64,000 nucleotides of DNA from Octopus vulgaris (lineage: Eukaryota). Both the position numbers and the translations under genes were made by a program. The notes below the pieces were generated by a model. That model worked only from the letters and a program-made list of their open reading frames with translations, was not told the DNA's origin and made no database searches. Position 1 is the first letter of the stretch, and each line of letters opens with the position of its first letter. The stretch covers positions 100,936,001 to 101,000,000 of the forward strand of contig OX597815.1 in the NCBI GenBank assembly GCA_951406725.2, given 5' to 3'. Positions 8,061 to 53,012 of this stretch are shown one piece after another.

Positions 8061-8214
8061 ACTTTCTCCCTACCCCCCTATTGCACTATTAGATTAATAT
8101 AAATTAATATAATATAATATAATTCCTCCCTTCCTCACAATCACAATCTCTTCCTCTCTCCTCCCTTCTCCCTTTTTCCCTCACAGCTTCTCTCTCTCTC
8201 CCCGCTACAACGGA

Positions 8215-9150
8215 ATGGACAACATGCAAAAATTAGAGGTGAATGCAAACACTGGCGTCAACAAAAGCCAGCGTAACTGGACGAAAGTAGAGCTGGAAGT
8301 TTTCATCAGAGGATGGAGCTCGGCCGACAGATCGCAACCAACTAAAAACATAGCGGCGACCCTGAAAAGCCATGGCTTTATGAGGACGTTGGCGCAAGTA
8401 GAGAGGAAGAAAAGAGAAGTCGAAAGGGCCTACACTCTCATTGCACCACACATGGCTTTGCTAAGCCAAGTCCTCAAGGTGGACAAAGACAAAGAGAGAG
8501 AGATGGAAACAGGAAACACCAACCACAGAGTGTCAAAAAATGACACGCCCACTGCCACAGTCGAAGAAGGCAAGCAGGGCAAACAACAGATAGGCGGCAA
8601 TGGGGAAACAGAAAATAACCACCCGGATGAAAAGACCTATGCAGAAAGGAACCAGTGGACAACCGTCCAACGGAGGAAGAAAAAACAGAGAGGAACTGGG
8701 GACAAGAAAACCCAGATAACATGCAAATTCTTCCGGAATGGAACCTGCTGGCATGGAGAAACAGGGGAAGGATGCAGGTTCGCTCATCCCAGGCCCTATG
8801 GAAATTGCATCAAACCCACTCGACCAAAATGCCTTAACCAAAACCAGAACAAATACAAGCTGCCCCAGAAATATGCAGACATAGTGCGTAATGCCCCAAC
8901 AAGGAGAAGGTGCACATTTGCAGAGGAAATGCAGACGGCGGCAGCAGAACAAAGAAATTTTGTGGAAATGGCAGAGAAAATTGTGGGACAACTGGCCTGG
9001 ATACATCGTCTTCAGAGCCAGGGGCACTCACAACAGCACTCAAGACCACCACAATCAAGGGACCCAGGGTGGCCACCGCTGACGCCGGCCCAGGTGCCAC
9101 ACCGTCAGCCTTTATTGACACCCCGGGTGTCTCACCAGTGCTTCTGCTGA
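8215..9150 (+). CDS. LINE ORF1, 311 aa: Myb/SANT-trihelix-like N-terminus, basic linker, CCCH zinc finger
   Basis: ATG start; RNWTKVELEVFIRGW...IAATLKSHGFMRTLAQVERKKREVERAY; CKFFRNGTCWHGETGEGCRFAHP; homologous segments at 25278 and 33138. Confidence 0.85.
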   Translation: MDNMQKLEVNANTGVNKSQRNWTKVELEVFIRGWSSADRSQPTKNIAATLKSHGFMRTLAQVERKKREVERAYTLIAPHMALLSQVLKVDKDKEREMETGNTNHRVSKNDTPTATVEEGKQGKQQIGGNGETENNHPDEKTYAERNQWTTVQRRKKKQRGTGDKKTQITCKFFRNGTCWHGETGEGCRFAHPRPYGNCIKPTRPKCLNQNQNKYKLPQKYADIVRNAPTRRRCTFAEEMQTAAAEQRNFVEMAEKIVGQLAWIHRLQSQGHSQQHSRPPQSRDPGWPPLTPAQVPHRQPLLTPRVSHQCFC

Positions 9151-12092
9151 ATGTCAGAGGTCTGGTGAAACCCACTAATATGGGTAAAATTCCTTACCTT
9201 AGGGACTTGAGCACAAGCAACCATGCAATATGCATAGCGCTGACTGAAACGCACCTGTCAAGCAGTATAGCAGATGCAGAAATACACATACCGAAGTATA
9301 CTGTTTTTCGGTCGGACAGGAAGGAAAGAACTCATGGTGGGGTTGCCCTGTACGTCCGTGAAGATGTCACACCCATAGTACTGTTGACACACTCAAACTC
9401 AGTCTGTGACACACTGATAGTACACATGAAACAACCGAAAATAGTAATATGTGTCACATATCGGCCACCAGACACCCCTAGTCATGAAGGAGTGTTTGAA
9501 GATAGCCTCAGAAGAATAGAAGAAGTCCTGGACAAACTGGACCAGGGTAACACCATTCTACTGCTGGGAGATTTTAACCTTCCGAAAGTCAAATGGCCAG
9601 ATGGCCATCTCCTCCCTGGAATGACATCACTTGAACAGAGACAGACAGAGTCCTTGTTGGCTCTCACACGCAAGTTTTTCATGGAGCAAGCAGTGCTTTG
9701 GCCAACAAGAGGTGAGAATGTCTTGGACCTCTGTTTCACAAGCAACCCGATGCTCATCCACAACATAATGGTAACACCAACAATTCTCTCAGATCACAAC
9801 TTAGTAGAGGTAATGATATATGGTATGAGAGAGTTAGTTGAGACGCAGCCATTAGAAAATACCACAGGCCTATCCAGTCTAAACTTCCATAAGGCAAACT
9901 GGAAGAAGATCAACGAAGAGATCCGAAAACATGACTGGAGTGACTTCATCACCACACAAGACACCAACACACATTTCCAACATTTCATGACAACAATACA
10001 GAACATATGCCATAAGTTTGTCCCGGAGAAAAAAGCCAGCGGGCATAGGAACGTTATTCCCAGAGACAGGAAAATACTTATGAGGCGAAGAGCTAAGCTC
10101 TCGAAGCAACTGAATGCACGGCAGAGAAACAATGAGGGACTCCACCTGAAACTTTTTGAAACGGAAACTGCACTCAAACTTTCCTATGAGAAGGAGAGGG
10201 CAGAGAGAGAAGCCAGGGCCATAGAGAATATTAAAACAAACCCTAAAGCCTTCTTTAAATTTGCGAAAGAAACCACCTCGGTACACTGCAAGATTGGCCC
10301 ACTCTTTGATAAAAAGGGCTCTCTAACTGAGGACCCCCAAGGGATAAGTGAAATACTAAAGGAACAGTATAAAAGTGTGTTCACATCCCCTCTGGGGCAC
10401 ATGCAAATCACAAACCCAGAAGTTTTCTTTGATGCCACAACACTCCAAAACCAAACAACAACCATCGACCACATAGACATAACAGAGAGGGATGTAATAT
10501 CTGCCATAGAAGAAATGAGAATAAACTCAGCTGCTGGACCAGATGGATTCCCAGCAGTCCTCCTAAAAACATGCAGGCATGCCCTAGCGGGACCACTGAA
10601 GAAGCTCTTCAGTGGTTCCTTGGCTAACGGTAAACTGCCCAGGGCGCTAAAAGAAGGCACCATATGCCCTATCCACAAAGGAGGGAGTAGAGCAGAGGCC
10701 AAAAACTACAGGCCAGTCTCCCTGACGTCACACATAAGTAAGGTCATGGAACGAATCATCAGAAAAAAACTGATCACGTTCCTCGAAGAAACTAACCGTC
10801 TCACTGACACACAGCATGGCTTTCGCCCAGGAAGAAGCTGCCTTACGCAGCTGTTACAACACTACGACTGGGTACTGAAACAACTACTGGATCGCTCACA
10901 GGTGGATGTGGTATATCTCGACTTTGCGAAGGCCTTTGACAAAGTCGACCACGGAGTGATATGTCACAAATTACTCAGACTCGGCATAACAGGAAAAGTA
11001 GGTGAGTGGATACATGACTTCCTGAAGGACAGAAGCCAGATGGTTGCAGCCAATGGAGCCCTCTCGGGAAAGACACCAATAGCAAGCGGGGTGCCACAGG
11101 GCACAGTCTTGGGACCCTTGCTGTTTTTGGTGGCGCTCTCTGACATGCCCTTGGTAGCACAAACAACATCCCTCACTAGCTATGCTGATGACACAAAGGT
11201 AGCACAGGCAATCAAAAACCCAGCTGATGCTGACCTTTTACAACAAGATCTGGATGCCATATACAAATGGGCTGAAGACAACAACATGCAATTTAATGCT
11301 GGCAAATTTCAAGCCTTACAATATCAAGCTGTAAACACATATACATTACAACACAACTATACTGGTCCAGGAGGGATCGAAATCCCAGTATCGAAATCAA
11401 TACGGGACCTGGGGATAGACATGAGTGACGATGCATCTTTTTCTTCACACATCGCGAAGGTGGCGACAATGTGCAGACGACTCACTGGCTGGATCCTGAG
11501 GACATTCCGGACAAGAGACTGCGAGACCATGTTGACACTATGGAGGACATTTGTCCTAAGCCGCCTGGACTACTGCTCCCAACTGTGGTCACCGCATAGT
11601 GTCAAACTAACCACAGAGCTTGAGACAATCCAAAGACATTTCACCAAGAGGATTTCCACCATGAAAGAAAAGAACTATTGGGAGAGGCTTAGGGAACTCA
11701 ATTTGTACTCCTTGGAACGAAGACGAGAGAGATATGCAGTGATATACATATGGAAAATCCTGGAGGGACTAGCACCAAATTTTGGAATTGAGAGCTGTTC
11801 CAATCCCCGTACAGGACGTCACTGTGTGGTGCCAAAGGTCCCGTCTTCCACATCCAGGGTAAGGAGCAGATACTGTAATAGCCTGGGGTTCAGGGGCCCT
11901 CAGCTTTTCAACAAACTGCCAAGAAAACTAAGAGATCTACATGATGCGGATGTGGACATTTTCAAAAAACATCTAGACAAGCTGCTTTCCGGGATCCCAG
12001 ATGAACCCACTGCAAGGTACGAAGGTAACCTAAGGGCAGCAGCTACAAACTCTCTCTTAGATCAGTGGCCAGCCACGGCAAACTGGACTTAG
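8910..12092 (+). CDS. LINE ORF2, uninterrupted APE endonuclease + reverse transcriptase (true start uncertain)
   Basis: [39 protein letters not shown]; [48 protein letters not shown]; CR1-type [10 protein letters not shown]...SLERRRER C-terminus. Confidence 0.96.
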
Positions 12093-44689: not shown

Positions 44690-45615
44690 TTCTGCCTTTT
44701 ACTTCAGTGATTGAAATGCAGCCATGCTGGGGCACCACCTTGAAAGGCTTTAGTTGAACAAATCGATTCTAGTACTTAGTTTTTAAAAAAACATACCTAT
44801 TCTTTCGATCACTTTTTGCCAAACCGCTATGTTACGGGAATGTAAACAACCAACACCGGCTGTCAAGTGGTGGTGTGGGATAAACATAGAGATACGTGCA
44901 TGCGTGTGACGGGTTTCTTTCAGTTTCAGACCAACTAAATCCATTCACAGCTAATACTGATTGACCAATAAATGTTTACGTAAGTGTTTATACTTTTATG
45001 GTTATATATAGGTGCAAGCCTAGCTATGTGATAAGAAGTTTCTTTCTCAATACACGGTTCTGGGTTCAGTCCCACTGCAAGGTACATTGAGCAAATGTCT
45101 TCTACTATAGACTCTGGGCTGACCAAAGCTTTGAGAGGGAATTTGGAAGACGGAAACTGCAAATATGTTGTATATGCATGCGTGTATTCCCCACCACCGC
45201 TTGGTAACCAGTGTTGGTTTACTCACGTCCCCGAAAGTTAGCGGCTCGGCAAAAAAGACCGATACAATAAGTATCAGGCTTAAAAAAAGCGTAAAAACTG
45301 GAGCTGATTTGTTTGACTAAACCTTCAATGCGGCGCTCTTGCACAGCTGCTGTCAAATAACTGAAACAAATGAAAGAGATAAAAAGATATGAACAGGCTG
45401 TAGCTCACAGCTGGAAATCCAAACGAAGTGGTTTCAATGGAGGCAGAAACCTGTTAGATATAATTTCCCATAACAACAACAAAAGAATACCACAATTTTA
45501 AAAGGCAGCTACAGACATTTGTCTTTTATCTTTTACATGTTTCAGTCATTAGACTGCAGCCATGCTGGGGCACTGCCTTGAAGAATTTTTAGTCAAATGC
45601 ATCGACGTCAGGGTT
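44690..45615. mobile_element. Cluster of CORE-like SINE copies (minus 44690-44950, plus 45011-45390, minus tail 45520-45615)
   Basis: Similarity to 32744-33135, including the CCAGCATGG tail. Confidence 0.75.
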
Positions 45616-47239: not shown

Positions 47240-47607
47240 TATATATAAGTATATAATTATATTAAGGGAGCAAGGGCGAAAAAAAAAAAAAAAAACCGAC
47301 CCATCTCCAACGTGCCGAGGCATTCAGATACGACCGAAAACTCCAAAAATAAACATGGATTGTAGGCGAGCGGGTGAAAAAAAAACCCTAAAAAGACTTC
47401 ACGTTAATCGTGAATTGGGTCCAATTTCTAGATTAAAACCGCAAAACATGCAGATTTCCTTCGTCAACAAAATACTCGAGATACATAAATAAAATAATTG
47501 TACATATCCGTACAAAACAGATCCGCACGTCCACATACTAATATTTGCACGTATAGATCAATAGATTAATACTTTTTCACGTCAGACATGTATATTATCA
47601 AAATTAA

Positions 47608-47663
<56 letters not shown>

Positions 47664-47823
47664 TATTAAGGGGGCAAGGGCGAAAAAAAAACGACCTATC
47701 TCCAACACACATATATGTGTCTGTGTTTGCCTCCAGCACCACCGCTTGACAACTGGTGGTGGTGTGTTTACGTCCCGGTAACTTAGCGGTTCGGCAAAAA
47801 TGTTCGGTAGAATAAGTACGAAG

Positions 47824-47861
<38 letters not shown>

Positions 47862-50262
47862 GACAGGCTTCTTTCAGTTTCTGTCTGCCAAATCCATTCA
47901 CAAGGCTTTGGTCGGCCCGAGGTAGAAGATTGCCCAAAGTGTTACTCAATAGGGCTGAACGTGGGGACATGTAGTCGGGAAGTCACGCCTGCAAATCGTT
48001 AATAAAAACATACAATTCATATTTGGTAAATTCAATAAGCTTATGTTTCTGTATAAATTCAACTTCTTTTGAACATTTTCATTTGGCAACACAGCGTGTA
48101 AAACATCAAACCACTTGATTGACTTCAAATTTTGACACAAGCCCAGCAATTTAAGAGTAGAGGATAAGTCGATGACACTGACCCCAGTGTGCAACTGGTA
48201 AGGAAGTCTTTCCTACCTGAGGTACACAAAAAGATTTTCTTTTATATATTTTTTGTTTACATGCATTTCAGTAATATTACAGAGTACAAACATATAAAGA
48301 GAAAACAAACTCAATTACACAACCAGACCCATGCACTTTATCAAATGAAAAAGTAATTTTTACAAGCGAAAACAATAGTTTTCAGGACACGAAGACATTA
48401 CCAACATGTCTTTTGCTACCATTTTGCAAGAGGGAACTGTCAGAAGTTAGCAGCCAGTAAAAAATGTGAGTGGTAAGTCACTAAAGCAAGTGCTTCTTTA
48501 ACTGAGGGAATAACCGAAGAACAGGTAAAACCTGCTTCAATTATTCTCATAAGACCAGTTGAATGAGGCTCTAGATGACGTATAGAACGAGGTTTCTTCT
48601 CTTGGTCGGGCAGGTCAAATGAGTCTGGTTTTCAGGACCAAGGAAACAGGCAGTACTAGTGCATTACACACATGCCCACCTGTCTGTGTACCAATCCATG
48701 AGATAATGCAGCAGTGTCACGGCAAAGAAAATTAGTTGCGACAGTGATCTTAGCTTCTAATCTTCATGGCATGGTGTGAGCAGGTGGTGAGCTCCGTGAT
48801 ATCAGGGACGATATGTTGTCCGGTGAGGTCTACATGTACATGTTGTTGTTGATGAACCTCGATGACCCTCGAAGAGCTTAAAGTAATCCAAGTGCTGCAT
48901 TTCATACCGGGTGCAGAGAGAAAGGCATTTAGACTATATAGTGGTGTAGGGTAAAAGGTCTAGCTGTTTATACGCGTTGTGGTTAGAGCCAATTGAAAGC
49001 TTTCTGCCGAAAGGAACTAAAAAAACAATGGAAGAAACTGGGCAACGACAGATACAGTAATAACACTAGCACAAAGAACTGAGGAGAAAAAAATAGAGCC
49101 AGAATTTAAAATAAAATAAAAAAAATATAGATGATAGACTGTTTGGTCAAAACCTCACCGATGGTCTAGCATTGTCTGAAAATGGAATGCGCAGAAGAGG
49201 ATGTCCAGAGAATCTTCTGGATGTACAAGGTTTCAGTACGAGGCTGAGAAGGTAATGGAGATTGTAAGAGGCTCCGATCCAACCTAAATGGTAGCTTCTC
49301 GTGCGTTTGTGTGCGCGCTGCTCTTATTTACATTGTTTTCATTTATTCATCTTTTAATTATGAATGCGTGCGCAGGAACATACACACACACACATACATA
49401 CATATATATATATATATATGTACTCACTACATATGAGTAACTGGTTCTAATTTAGGCACTAGGCCAGCAATTTTGAGATTGAAGGGAAGGGATTAGTCCA
49501 TATCATCGACTTAGCTGGTACTTTATTTTATCGGCCTATATGATCAGAGGGACATGACCAAGAAGGTAAACTGAAAGGACAGCAATGAGAGATGGTCTAG
49601 GTAGACTGGGCAAAAAGAAGTGAGAGCACTGATTAAAGTGACAGGTCGCTAGAAGAGGTAGAAATGGATTTGAACATAGAATCGGAAGAAATACTGCAAA
49701 GCATTTTGTCTGATGCTCTAAGGACTGCCAGTTCACTGCCGTTTTGGGTAGTTGAAAATACAATTAATGCGTCTTAATACATTGTTAATGACTCTTGTTT
49801 TCACAAATTTGTATCACGCGATTTGTATGAATATATGAATAGGTACTAATTGTAAGATAAACCAAAGATGATTTCTTTTATTAGCCACAAAGGCTTGAGA
49901 TGTTGGGGATATTACCAAGACAAAATATAAAGTAGTGGGAGAAGTTCATCAAGTAAAAAAAAAAATGAAAATAAAAACCAAAAACATCAATACATAAAAT
50001 GTCAACAAGAAAAGATTCCCAATAAAAACCACATACGTTAATACGGTGGAAATCCAACACAAAATCCAGGTTTACACTGATGCAGCGAAGGATTATCCTC
50101 AGTCACTCTCGTTTCCTATTTAGCAGCTAAGTAATAAGTGGTAATCAATATAAGGATATCTTAACAGGCAGCTGATGTCACCTTTAAGTTTTTTCGTTTA
50201 TCTTTATAAGGAAAATTATTGAATGAACTTTTAAAGAATCGCCCAACCATGTAGAGGTTGAA

Positions 50263-51417
50263 TCATAAAACAGGATTTTTTTTAAAGCAACCGCAGATTA
50301 GGAAGATTATAATTACATATAATAAAGCGTCATGGGTAGAAATATTTTTAAAAACTAATATCTTTTCAACTTTGCATTTATCCTGGAATATTGAAACATA
50401 TCTCTTAAAAGGTTCGAACATTTTTAGAATTTCCATATTTTTAGTGTAGTCACAACTTGAACTTGATTTACTTCCAAACACATACATAAGGATTTGAAAT
50501 GTGGAAATTGTTTGGTTTTGCGGATATTTTTCAAGAATTTCTTTAAAAACTTCTTCTTTAGGAAAGTTTTGTAACATAAATTTATGAAATTTTGTTTTAT
50601 CAAAATCATGTGTGGCAAATAGCCACATTAATTTTTCACATGAGTAATATTTTTTATCAGAATCAGGCTTAATTACTATCCATTCTAAGGGAAAGACTAA
50701 CCTGGAATCGTAATGATATTTAGCAGCTGATGGTAAATATTGAAAGGCAAACTCAACAGGAGCATTTTTTAGTAATTCTACTGCCATATCACTTAAGTCT
50801 TTTTTAGTAAGATCAACAAATACTTCTTTATCGTACTCTTTAAGTGAACAAAAATTTCCAAGATAATCGAAGAATCGTTCGGGAGTGTGTTTCATTTGCC
50901 ACCCAAACACTCTCAGTTGTTTTTCAGTTTTACCGTCTTTGAACTTCTTTTCAATCTCATCCAATTTCTTATATTTGTCACAAGTTTGCTGCGACCAGCA
51001 TCGAAAATCTTCTTCAATTTTCATACCACAACCATGTTTACCGATTTCGCGAAATATATTCACAATCTGCTCGACAGTTTTTTCGTCGCCTTCATGACTC
51101 ACCAAAATATAGTTTGTCAACATGATTTCCCCTAATCTTTTTATATCCATGCTGTTATCTCTCATTACACTATCAACAACATCCCACGAAAAATTCATGC
51201 GGATGCCAAGATTGATGATATCTTCGGTATCATTAAAGTATTCTGAAAGATTTTGTAAACGATATTTATCGAAGAATCCAACACATCTAAGATAGGTAGC
51301 ACTTACTTTATGGTAGCTCCAGAAAATGTTACTCATTTCCATCAACGATTCGGGATGAGTTTGCCAATACCTATGGCGAAATTGTTCCAAAGAAATAACA
51401 CACCTCTCGCTGGTCAT
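50263..51417 (-). CDS. Intronless 384-aa ORF; death-domain-like N-terminal region and C-terminal hydrophobic segment
   Basis: ATG-to-TGA ORF of 1155 bp in AT-rich, non-repetitive DNA; residues ~49-137 follow the death-fold pattern; ALLYVIIIFLICGCF-KK at the end. Confidence 0.7.
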   Translation of the reverse strand: MTSERCVISLEQFRHRYWQTHPESLMEMSNIFWSYHKVSATYLRCVGFFDKYRLQNLSEYFNDTEDIINLGIRMNFSWDVVDSVMRDNSMDIKRLGEIMLTNYILVSHEGDEKTVEQIVNIFREIGKHGCGMKIEEDFRCWSQQTCDKYKKLDEIEKKFKDGKTEKQLRVFGWQMKHTPERFFDYLGNFCSLKEYDKEVFVDLTKKDLSDMAVELLKNAPVEFAFQYLPSAAKYHYDSRLVFPLEWIVIKPDSDKKYYSCEKLMWLFATHDFDKTKFHKFMLQNFPKEEVFKEILEKYPQNQTISTFQILMYVFGSKSSSSCDYTKNMEILKMFEPFKRYVSIFQDKCKVEKILVFKNISTHDALLYVIIIFLICGCFKKNPVL

Positions 51418-52739
51418 TATTAAAGATTAATAAATTAATAATAATTTAAAAAAAGTTATATATTAATTCAAATGTATTTAGAAATTTCAAATACAAAATA
51501 GTTTTTGTTGTGGTTTTAAACATAAACCTATGAAAAATACTAAACTGCGATAGATTAGTATGACATTCACAAAAATTAGAGCTGGTAAAAGATATTGGTC
51601 ATTATTTTTCTTTGGGTTTTATCTTTCTTTTATCGAAGTAAATTGTTCTTCACTGGATGATATCACAACGCAATTCAGCAAGTGGACTGCGCGACACTAG
51701 GTTGATGTCCCAAGTGTTATAGAAGAAATGCAGTTATCTCCCCTTGACACTTGTATTAAGTGTGTGAGACATACACACATTCATGTACGCTCACACGCAC
51801 GCGTCCTGAGAGGTGGAATTAACATGTGGTAGCCGACAAGAAGCATAAGAGCTTTAAAGAGCGCATTGCAAGGCCTTTGCCTAAACTAAACTGAACAGAT
51901 GGATAATAGTGATTGCTGAGGCTGCAGCGGAAGTCACTTCCAAAATTATAGATTTTAGAATTTAAAAAAAAAATAAGAGTCTCTTATTGTTTTTAATTAC
52001 TTAATGCTAATAAAAAAATCTGAAAAATAAATAGTGTATGTGTTCATGCATAATGTACATAAATGGATACATACGGCGAGGTGAAGGGGTTTAAAAAAAT
52101 CATATATTTTCAAAAATGTTTCCATGAAAAGCTAACTGTATGGTGAAGAAGGAAAATGAAAGATCCCCTTTCGAAACGGAATAGGCGACCTGTTCCAGAC
52201 CTCCGAACAAATATTTTCTTTTAAAAACATTGCAGAGTTCCAGTTCGAAAGCATTAAATCTTTGGCATAGTTTCGGTTGTAGTAGCACAGATTTCGAAAC
52301 TTCGCCTCTTTCTTTGAATGTATAAGATAAATAGATAAATAAATAAAATACAAATAAAAAAGTTCTGAAAATGTATATGTATATAACAGAAATCCGGTTA
52401 GTTAGATATATTGTTATGCGTAATTATGTTCACTGGAAGCATATATATATATGTGTGTGTGTGTGTGTAAGTATATATATATATGTGAGTTTGTGTGTGG
52501 TTATACACACATAGACATGCATAGGAATATCTATTTACTAATACACAAACACAAGCATACACACCAACGATCGCGTATTTCCCCTAATCTATTTATAGCG
52601 AATTTGTTTTTGTCAAGGCTATGATCTATTAACATCGAGGAAACGTTGCTAGCAAAAATTAAAATGTCTTCGGAACTATTACAGAGTTTTAAAATTTTTC
52701 GTTGGCGACATTTAACAAAAAACTCAGCACATCTAAGAT

Positions 52740-52895
52740 GTGAATGTGGAGCAAGGAGCTTGCTTCACAACCACATGGTTCCTGGTTCAGTCCCACTGCA
52801 TGTCAACTTGGACAAGAGTCTTCTGCTATAGTCACAGGCCGATCAAAGCCTTATGAATGAATTTTTGGTAGACAGAAACTAAAGAAGTCTGTAAT
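52740..52895 (+). mobile_element. CORE-like SINE 5' half
   Basis: CAACCACATGGTTCCTGGTTCAGTCCCACTGC matches the 32744 family. Confidence 0.7.
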
Positions 52896-53012
52896 ATCTT
52901 GTCAAATATATATATATATATAAGGTTAATCCAAACGGGAAAACAGAAAAAACAACAACACGTGGAACAATTAAAGTATTATTATTAGGCGCTCAGGAAA
53001 AAGGGAAGAAGG

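Follow-up and report, generated by a model that had tools for sequence, protein, structure and literature searches.

A single-exon octopod gene with a predicted death domain and a tail-anchor-like C-terminus

We found that a 64,000-nucleotide stretch of the Octopus vulgaris genome (G000:C2:100936001-101000000, hereafter the window) carries an intact gene, conserved across octopods, whose product joins a predicted death domain to a hydrophobic, tail-anchor-like end. This protein is best read as a lineage-specific adaptor, and we propose, a little short of calling it probable, that this octopod single-exon gene encodes a membrane-held death-domain platform capturing death-domain adaptors. The initial annotation had suggested a lineage-specific immune or apoptosis adaptor; the death fold and the conserved, unspliced tail-anchor-like end have stood, while strict orphan status, kinship with MAVS and viral cargo have not.

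Gene structure and transcription

The 384-residue coding sequence occupies a single exon on the minus strand (50263..51417, read from 51417 to 50263), and the protein ends in ALLYVIIIFLICGCF-KKNPVL. It had been singled out as the only long non-transposon open reading frame of the window, and inspection of 132 frames of at least 100 residues agrees: by our own reading, the remaining long frames are microsatellite read-throughs or transposon-like pieces. Six of these other frames were scanned with Pfam, which recognised reverse transcriptase in two; the four without a match were judged transposon pieces by eye.

The gene is probably transcribed without splicing, as indicated by contigs of putative RNA origin. 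In four runs, one from each of four studies, a single contig spans the reading frame (49864-51711, 49850-51695, 49858-51707 and 49905-51707), all free of internal joints, and these unbroken contigs together with the conserved frame bear out the earlier description of the gene as intronless. They outline a probable unspliced transcript of ~1.85 kb (49850..51711, minus strand as inferred from the reading frame) with a 5' UTR of ~290 nt and a 3' UTR of ~400 nt. The RNA status of the four runs, which belong to 14 guessed to be RNA overall, is the tool's guess; the runs measure only 14-115 Mb against a genome of 2.8 Gb and have no cover at 47362-47723, and a genome-sized run extends beyond both transcript ends. 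The runs were chosen because they contain the stretch, so they are uninformative on expression level or tissue, and the lack of cover over the reading frame in three further runs, compared at 80% likeness, likewise says nothing on expression. A likely polyadenylation signal, AATAAA, lies at 49877..49882 (minus strand); three of the four contigs stop 13-27 bases beyond it, at 49850-49864, and the fourth stops at 49905. In two of the studies, 22-26 letters of the contig at the presumed 5' end (51707-51711) do not align and are either adaptor or a small upstream exon; the leader holds three upstream ATGs (51602, 51566 and 51523).

A public gene model from NCBI (P0003) reads the locus differently. 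It places a donor after 50702 and joins it to a terminal exon peculiar to that model (45405..45450, minus strand, with GT/AG ends), so that the P0003 protein ends in FLPPLKPLRLDFQL and residues 241-384, including the hydrophobic tail, would be deleted. The true gene would then consist of the death domain and the central module without a tail. The good GT donor at 50701 and the AG acceptor at 45451, both used by the public model, speak for this structure, but contigs in all four runs read through the donor, and the frame past the donor is conserved up to the stop in three orthologs. Because of these contigs and orthologs the spliced model is contradicted as the main form, and we consider it hardly credible as the true gene, although a minor tail-less isoform may exist, as contigs drop rare variants. 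Removal of the tail by splicing had been named in advance as a way in which the adaptor reading could fail; the tail survives, since the contigs are unbroken across the donor in four of four runs.

Relatives and constraint

In the databases searched, relatives of the gene came exclusively from octopuses and the paper nautilus. A protein search (5.8 billion) gave three matches among 3124 candidates and, using alignment, five among 4810; a profile run against 1.84 billion representatives had three matches, all octopod. The O. bimaculoides ortholog, obtained by cluster look-up, has 384 residues, is 91% identical and carries an identical tail, and the Argonauta ortholog (380 residues) is 54% identical end to end with the frame kept. 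The gene is not a strict orphan: three or more other octopods have an ortholog, and its wider kin comprise a paralog lacking the tail, a partial copy that is broken, and a relative with twin death domains.

The paralog (C2:100928296; L002:1486-2553, P0005) lies on the plus strand ~7 kb left of the window and 57 kb from the gene, in convergent orientation and with repeats between the two. It is intronless, encodes 355 residues and is 32-36% identical. The paralog possesses the death domain and the central module and lacks the hydrophobic tail, as does a 55%-identical relative known from another source. The broken copy (C14:6100171-6101223; L017:171-1223) is 5'-truncated, covers the 3' half of the gene at 94-96% identity, is split by a repeat insertion and is frameshifted. 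Between the gene and this copy there are 11 synonymous and 17 non-synonymous codon differences (pN/pS ~0.35, p 0.009), as expected if the window's gene remained under constraint. The copy has several residues in common with the O. bimaculoides ortholog and is maybe about as old as that split.

The twin-death-domain gene (C1:198186490; L010:793-1935, P0007) encodes 380 residues that include two death domains plus a linker rich in Cys. UniRef labels it 'Death domain-containing protein', and the orthologs recovered come from O. bimaculoides, Argonauta and one further source only. It resembles the window's gene in being intronless, about 380 residues long and recovered only from octopods; it differs in having two clear death domains, in ending without a hydrophobic tail, in having nothing that matches the central module and in lying on another chromosome. 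In a tree of 25 domains, the gene family and the twin-domain gene stood together, apart from 11 canonical domains (support 89/96, unstarred, with a long-branch warning), and a common octopod origin of the two is plausible from these sequence comparisons.

A predicted death domain

Residues 45-146 (50980..51285, minus strand) are predicted to form a divergent death domain of six helices with a net charge of -7. Residues ~49-137 had been assigned to the death-domain pattern; the six-helix segment is real, and its structural limits are ~45-146 instead. The AlphaFold2 model, which was built from four sequences and is confident for residues 47-145 only, shows six helices at pLDDT 69-88 over the domain. 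Among 48,161 solved chains, the best structural match was the FADD death domain (3ezq_B; Z 11.4, rmsd 2.3 Å, 99 residues aligned (VIA)), followed by PIDD1 (2of5_H, Z 10.7) and ankyrin-G (4o6x_A, Z 10.1), with p84 at Z 9.3. The top five are all death domains (Z 9.3-11.4) and 48 of the best 50 are named death-fold proteins, on a scale where Z below ~13 can arise for helical bundles. The best chains of the other subfamilies, compared with the same predicted model, reached Z 9.2 (CARD), 8.6 (DED) and 8.1 (PYD), and on this model the fold belongs with the death domains rather than with CARD, DED or PYD. Foldseek placed the same chains on top, FADD first at probability 0.99 and E 0.26, its E-values not being significant. 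The structural check proposed at the outset thus yielded a death-fold match, with death domains ranking highest.

Profile comparison gave independent support. A profile of 16 octopus death-domain sequences, drawn from the 24 of 52 candidates that matched Pfam Death, near-copies being omitted, aligned to the domain at probability 84.7 (E 6.7e-6, 85 columns), and none of 60 nulls did as well; in a second test with canonical octopus death domains, none of 500 nulls was as good. The canonical octopus sequences that match best are L027, L024 and L020, then the FADD-like L018, all weakly. The domain also aligns at probability 88 to the second domain of the twin-death-domain gene, and both domains of that gene align to residues 45-146 (probabilities 96 and 81); its Argonauta ortholog exceeds the Pfam Death cut-off (28.7 bits vs 22.6). 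Taken alone, our domain scores 13.1 bits against Pfam Death (PF00531), its only Pfam match, under the same cut-off of 22.6, and Pfam did not detect a death domain in the full-length proteins. Canonical death domains are marked by a Trp in helix 2 and another in helix 4; both are substituted here.

Sequence searches of the PDB returned chance matches only. Death clusters turned up in the ESM Atlas at 0.79-0.89, to be taken as no more than a lead, and residues 150-384 had no match there. Two Pfam candidates far under cut-off were rejected, PI3_PI4_kinase on the whole protein (E 0.036) and 2CompARG on the paralog (E 0.022). Pfam found no effector domain (DED, CARD, TIR or kinase) in the protein.

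A predicted tail anchor

A hydrophobic helix of 15 residues, A364-F378 (50284..50328, minus strand), is followed by the basic tail KKNPVL and the stop codon (50263..50283, minus strand), confirming the hydrophobic run of about 15 residues plus KK that had been noted at the end of the protein. Its mean Kyte-Doolittle value is 2.95, with hydropathy as the sole measure applied to the tail; of 2000 shuffled sequences, 4 reached this value at any position and none did so in the last 30 residues. The two orthologs measured give 2.86 and 2.39. The helix is the only strongly hydrophobic stretch and has six residues after it, and the orthologs are alike in this. The net charge of the basic tail is +2 (+2 and +3 in orthologs). 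All four orthologs have the tail, and both tail-less paralogs are without it.

A single hydrophobic helix within 30 residues of the C-terminus, with none elsewhere, is the pattern of a tail-anchored protein, and on this sequence pattern we predict a membrane anchor. It is unlikely, in our view, that the helix is instead buried or lipidated, which would make the protein a death-domain adaptor of soluble or peripheral type, resembling its paralog. The uncharged stretch is indeed short for a membrane span (15 residues, and 12 in Argonauta, where the helix includes an Asn), and a Cys ahead of the tail lysines is conserved; however, the helix is hydrophobic on every face, terminal and followed by basic residues, and its absence from the paralogs implies that the shared core does not need it. 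Among tail-anchored proteins, high hydrophobicity favours the ER, and the tail charge averages 2.5 in proteins shared by mitochondria and peroxisomes (PMC5450235). The predicted target is about equally likely to be the ER or mitochondria/peroxisome, because hydrophobicity points to the former and a tail charge of +2 to +3 to the latter.

Central module and flanking segments

Ahead of the death domain, residues 10-36 (51310..51390, minus strand) form a two-helix segment in the AlphaFold2 model (helices 10-20 and 23-36, pLDDT 48-69). Behind it, residues 147-237 (50707..50979, minus strand) constitute the most conserved module of the protein: the O. bimaculoides ortholog differs at 1 of 91 positions here, whereas the death domain shows 13 differences in 102 (p 0.002), and two other orthologs trend likewise. 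A model without the N-terminus predicts a small helical bundle at residues 146-220 (pLDDT 69-86). When residues 146-384 were folded separately, no clear fold match was obtained, the best being a designed protein at Z 6.1.

The module contains a hexamer, PVEFAF, at residue 220 that fits PxExxZ, a TRAF6 motif (PMC6125299). It is present in four of four tailed orthologs and at that place in neither of the two tail-less paralogs, which have lost the Glu; one of them has a PxExxZ match at another position. Our protein has matches at 220 and 286, both in predicted helices, at a chance rate of ~0.2 per protein, and the conservation of the TRAF6-type hexamer at 220 could be chance.

Residues 255-350 (50368..50655, minus strand) may represent a second, decayed death domain, a reading that we regard as evenly balanced. 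Its helices start at 0/13/27/43/62/74 vs 0/13/27/41/61/77 in the first domain (in a low-confidence part of the model), and the segment aligns with octopus death domains in the register of helices 3-5, block-shuffled nulls being as good in 3 of 500 and 1 of 500 cases. The hhalign probability is only 2%; Pfam gave no match for the segment, and the 146-384 model gave no fold match. Two degenerate repeats had been suspected further along the protein than the first domain. One, EILEKYPQ...FQILMY, is weakly upheld as helices 3-4 of the possible second domain. The other, DLSDMAVELLK, finds little support (hhalign probability 0.2-0.4; nulls as good in 15-16 of 60 and 16-26 of 500) and falls in the separate conserved module.

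Proposed function and alternatives

We propose that the 15-residue helix and basic tail would insert post-translationally and leave the remainder of the protein in the cytosol. There, the acidic death domain could co-assemble with basic death domains of FADD-, CRADD- or MyD88-type adaptors, as family knowledge suggests, and the conserved central module might bind a conserved downstream partner, possibly, and speculatively, TRAF6 via PVEFAF. The tail-less paralog, which is without the Glu of PVEFAF, may compete as a soluble regulator. Candidate partners for such a platform include a FADD-like gene with DED and death domain, as well as the Pfam Death matches of the genome. FADD has been reported in molluscs including a cephalopod (PMC11463336).

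The foremost alternative shares this anatomy. The protein could be a membrane-tethered decoy that traps death-domain adaptors on the membrane and, instead of passing the signal on, dampens apoptosis or NF-kB signalling; as the protein has no effector domain that Pfam recognises, such a decoy fits equally well as far as domain content goes. Death-fold-only proteins often act as inhibitors, and the death domain has diverged more quickly than the central module, as that of a decoy might. However, a near-invariant module of 91 residues is not obviously needed by a decoy, and we hold this explanation to be rather less than likely while taking it seriously. A non-immune structural or developmental scaffold, using the death domain as in ankyrin, UNC5 or p84, seems to us quite unlikely. 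The Z scores of ankyrin-G and p84 are near that of FADD, and the best-matching canonical octopus sequences rank ahead of the FADD-like one, all weakly; against a scaffold, lineage restriction, duplication and fast domain turnover would be more typical of immune or cell-death genes. The boldest version of the platform reading, which we consider improbable, is an octopod-evolved MAVS-like protein, tail-anchored and with two death domains, that would nucleate a membrane signalosome, recruit TRAF6 and be checked by the soluble paralog at the same locus, in a clade of intronless death-domain genes undetected by Pfam.

Comparison with known systems

The likeness to the death domains of FADD, PIDD1 and ankyrin-G lies in the six-helix fold over residues 45-148 (Z 10.1-11.4, rmsd 2.2-2.3 Å). 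Identity is only 12-14%, and the octopus protein has no DED, ZU5, LRR or ankyrin repeats, whereas it adds the central module and the C-terminal hydrophobic tail. A FADD-type adaptor was rejected as its identity, since it has no DED and a separate DED plus death-domain gene exists on C26.

With MAVS, it shares an N-terminal death-fold domain, a C-terminal membrane tail (predicted here) and a candidate TRAF6 motif, and the tail-less paralog is a possible counterpart of MAVS50, the built-in antagonist of MAVS (PMC4519330). However, the octopus domain is a death domain, not a CARD (Z 8.1 for the MAVS CARD vs 11.4 for the FADD death domain), and its tail is shorter and more hydrophobic, with no sequence similarity found. 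MAVS has a long Pro-rich linker, whereas the octopus middle is predicted to be helical, with 2.6% Pro and at most four Pro per 40 residues. None of the genome's 12 PF16739 matches falls at this locus. The proposed MAVS-type adaptor thus comes down to an analogy, the domain being no CARD and the Pro-rich linker absent. A replacement of a lost RIG-I/MAVS arm was considered and dropped, as a RIG-I-like CARD and C-terminal domain exist on C2. At C2:137.54-137.67 Mb (L042, L054), CARD_2 and the RIG-I C-terminal domain lie on the same strand, likely in one RIG-I-like receptor gene.

NRADD/NRH2, p75NTR, BFAR and BAP31 are membrane-bound regulators with a death-fold or death-fold-like domain; they differ in being receptors with a C-terminal death domain or multi-pass proteins with DED-like regions. 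We know of none among such regulators with an N-terminal death domain and a single terminal anchor, and no description of this layout was found in the literature searched. No description of the gene itself was found in the literature covered, although it could figure in supplementary tables as an uncharacterised transcript.

Cephalopod inventories of immune and cell-death genes would miss this gene because they rely on homology; one of them omitted sequences without the usual domains (PMC11463336). The public gene model, moreover, removes the tail. If the protein does signal, it would count as a convergent equivalent of MAVS. The pair of paralogs, one with the tail and one without, would offer a natural experiment on how membrane tethering affects death-domain signalling, and the fold of the near-invariant central module would be worth determining.

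Origin and genomic context

A captured viral or mobile-element gene, such as a vFLIP-like decoy or Polinton cargo, had been raised as a source, with which the lack of introns and the very AT-rich leader were held compatible. The gene is indeed intronless, the window is rich in retrotransposons, and the MC159 vFLIP is among the structural matches (Z 8.6), but the match is closer to cellular death domains than to vFLIP. Searches for viral relatives came back empty in BFVD, in IMG/VR (none of 34 pattern matches confirmed) and among the 1.84 billion representatives, and no Polinton-type reading frame could be discerned in the window or within 20 kb of either end. A GC content of 26% in the leader is unremarkable at this locus, where the reading frame has 32% and the 1-kb bins of 49001-53000 have 31-36%. 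Intron-free death-fold genes are not rare here either, because the FADD-like gene (C26, L018:1201-1755) and two CARD-DD-like genes (C14, L028 and L035; the CARD is our own reading) each have a single open frame. Viral or mobile cargo thus finds no support, and we regard it as very improbable, although an ancient capture could escape the sequence libraries.

The origin is most simply explained by the duplication of a death-domain gene that was already without introns, and an old retroposition is possible. None of 11 and 17 candidates is exon-split as an intron-bearing parent would be, and a poly(A) remnant was not seen beyond the 3' end; such marks of retroposition would be lost, because the gene predates the split of Octopus and Argonauta.

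Elsewhere in the genome, near-identical death-domain exons form expanded arrays, mostly on C29 and C31 (L026, L029-L034, L036-L041), and C24:38.85-39.06 Mb (L043-L053) holds 11 near-identical CARD-bearing exons above the Pfam CARD_2 cut-off within ~200 kb. The neighbours of our gene are remnants of retrotransposons and DNA transposons and an intronless ELL gene, the reading frame of which lies 5.4 kb right of the window (L014:5420-6691; Pfam ELL, E 1e-42). Within the window, an apparently intact two-ORF non-LTR retrotransposon occupies 8113-12092 among several decayed copies; its first frame encodes 345 residues, and the second, with endonuclease and reverse transcriptase, encodes 1066.
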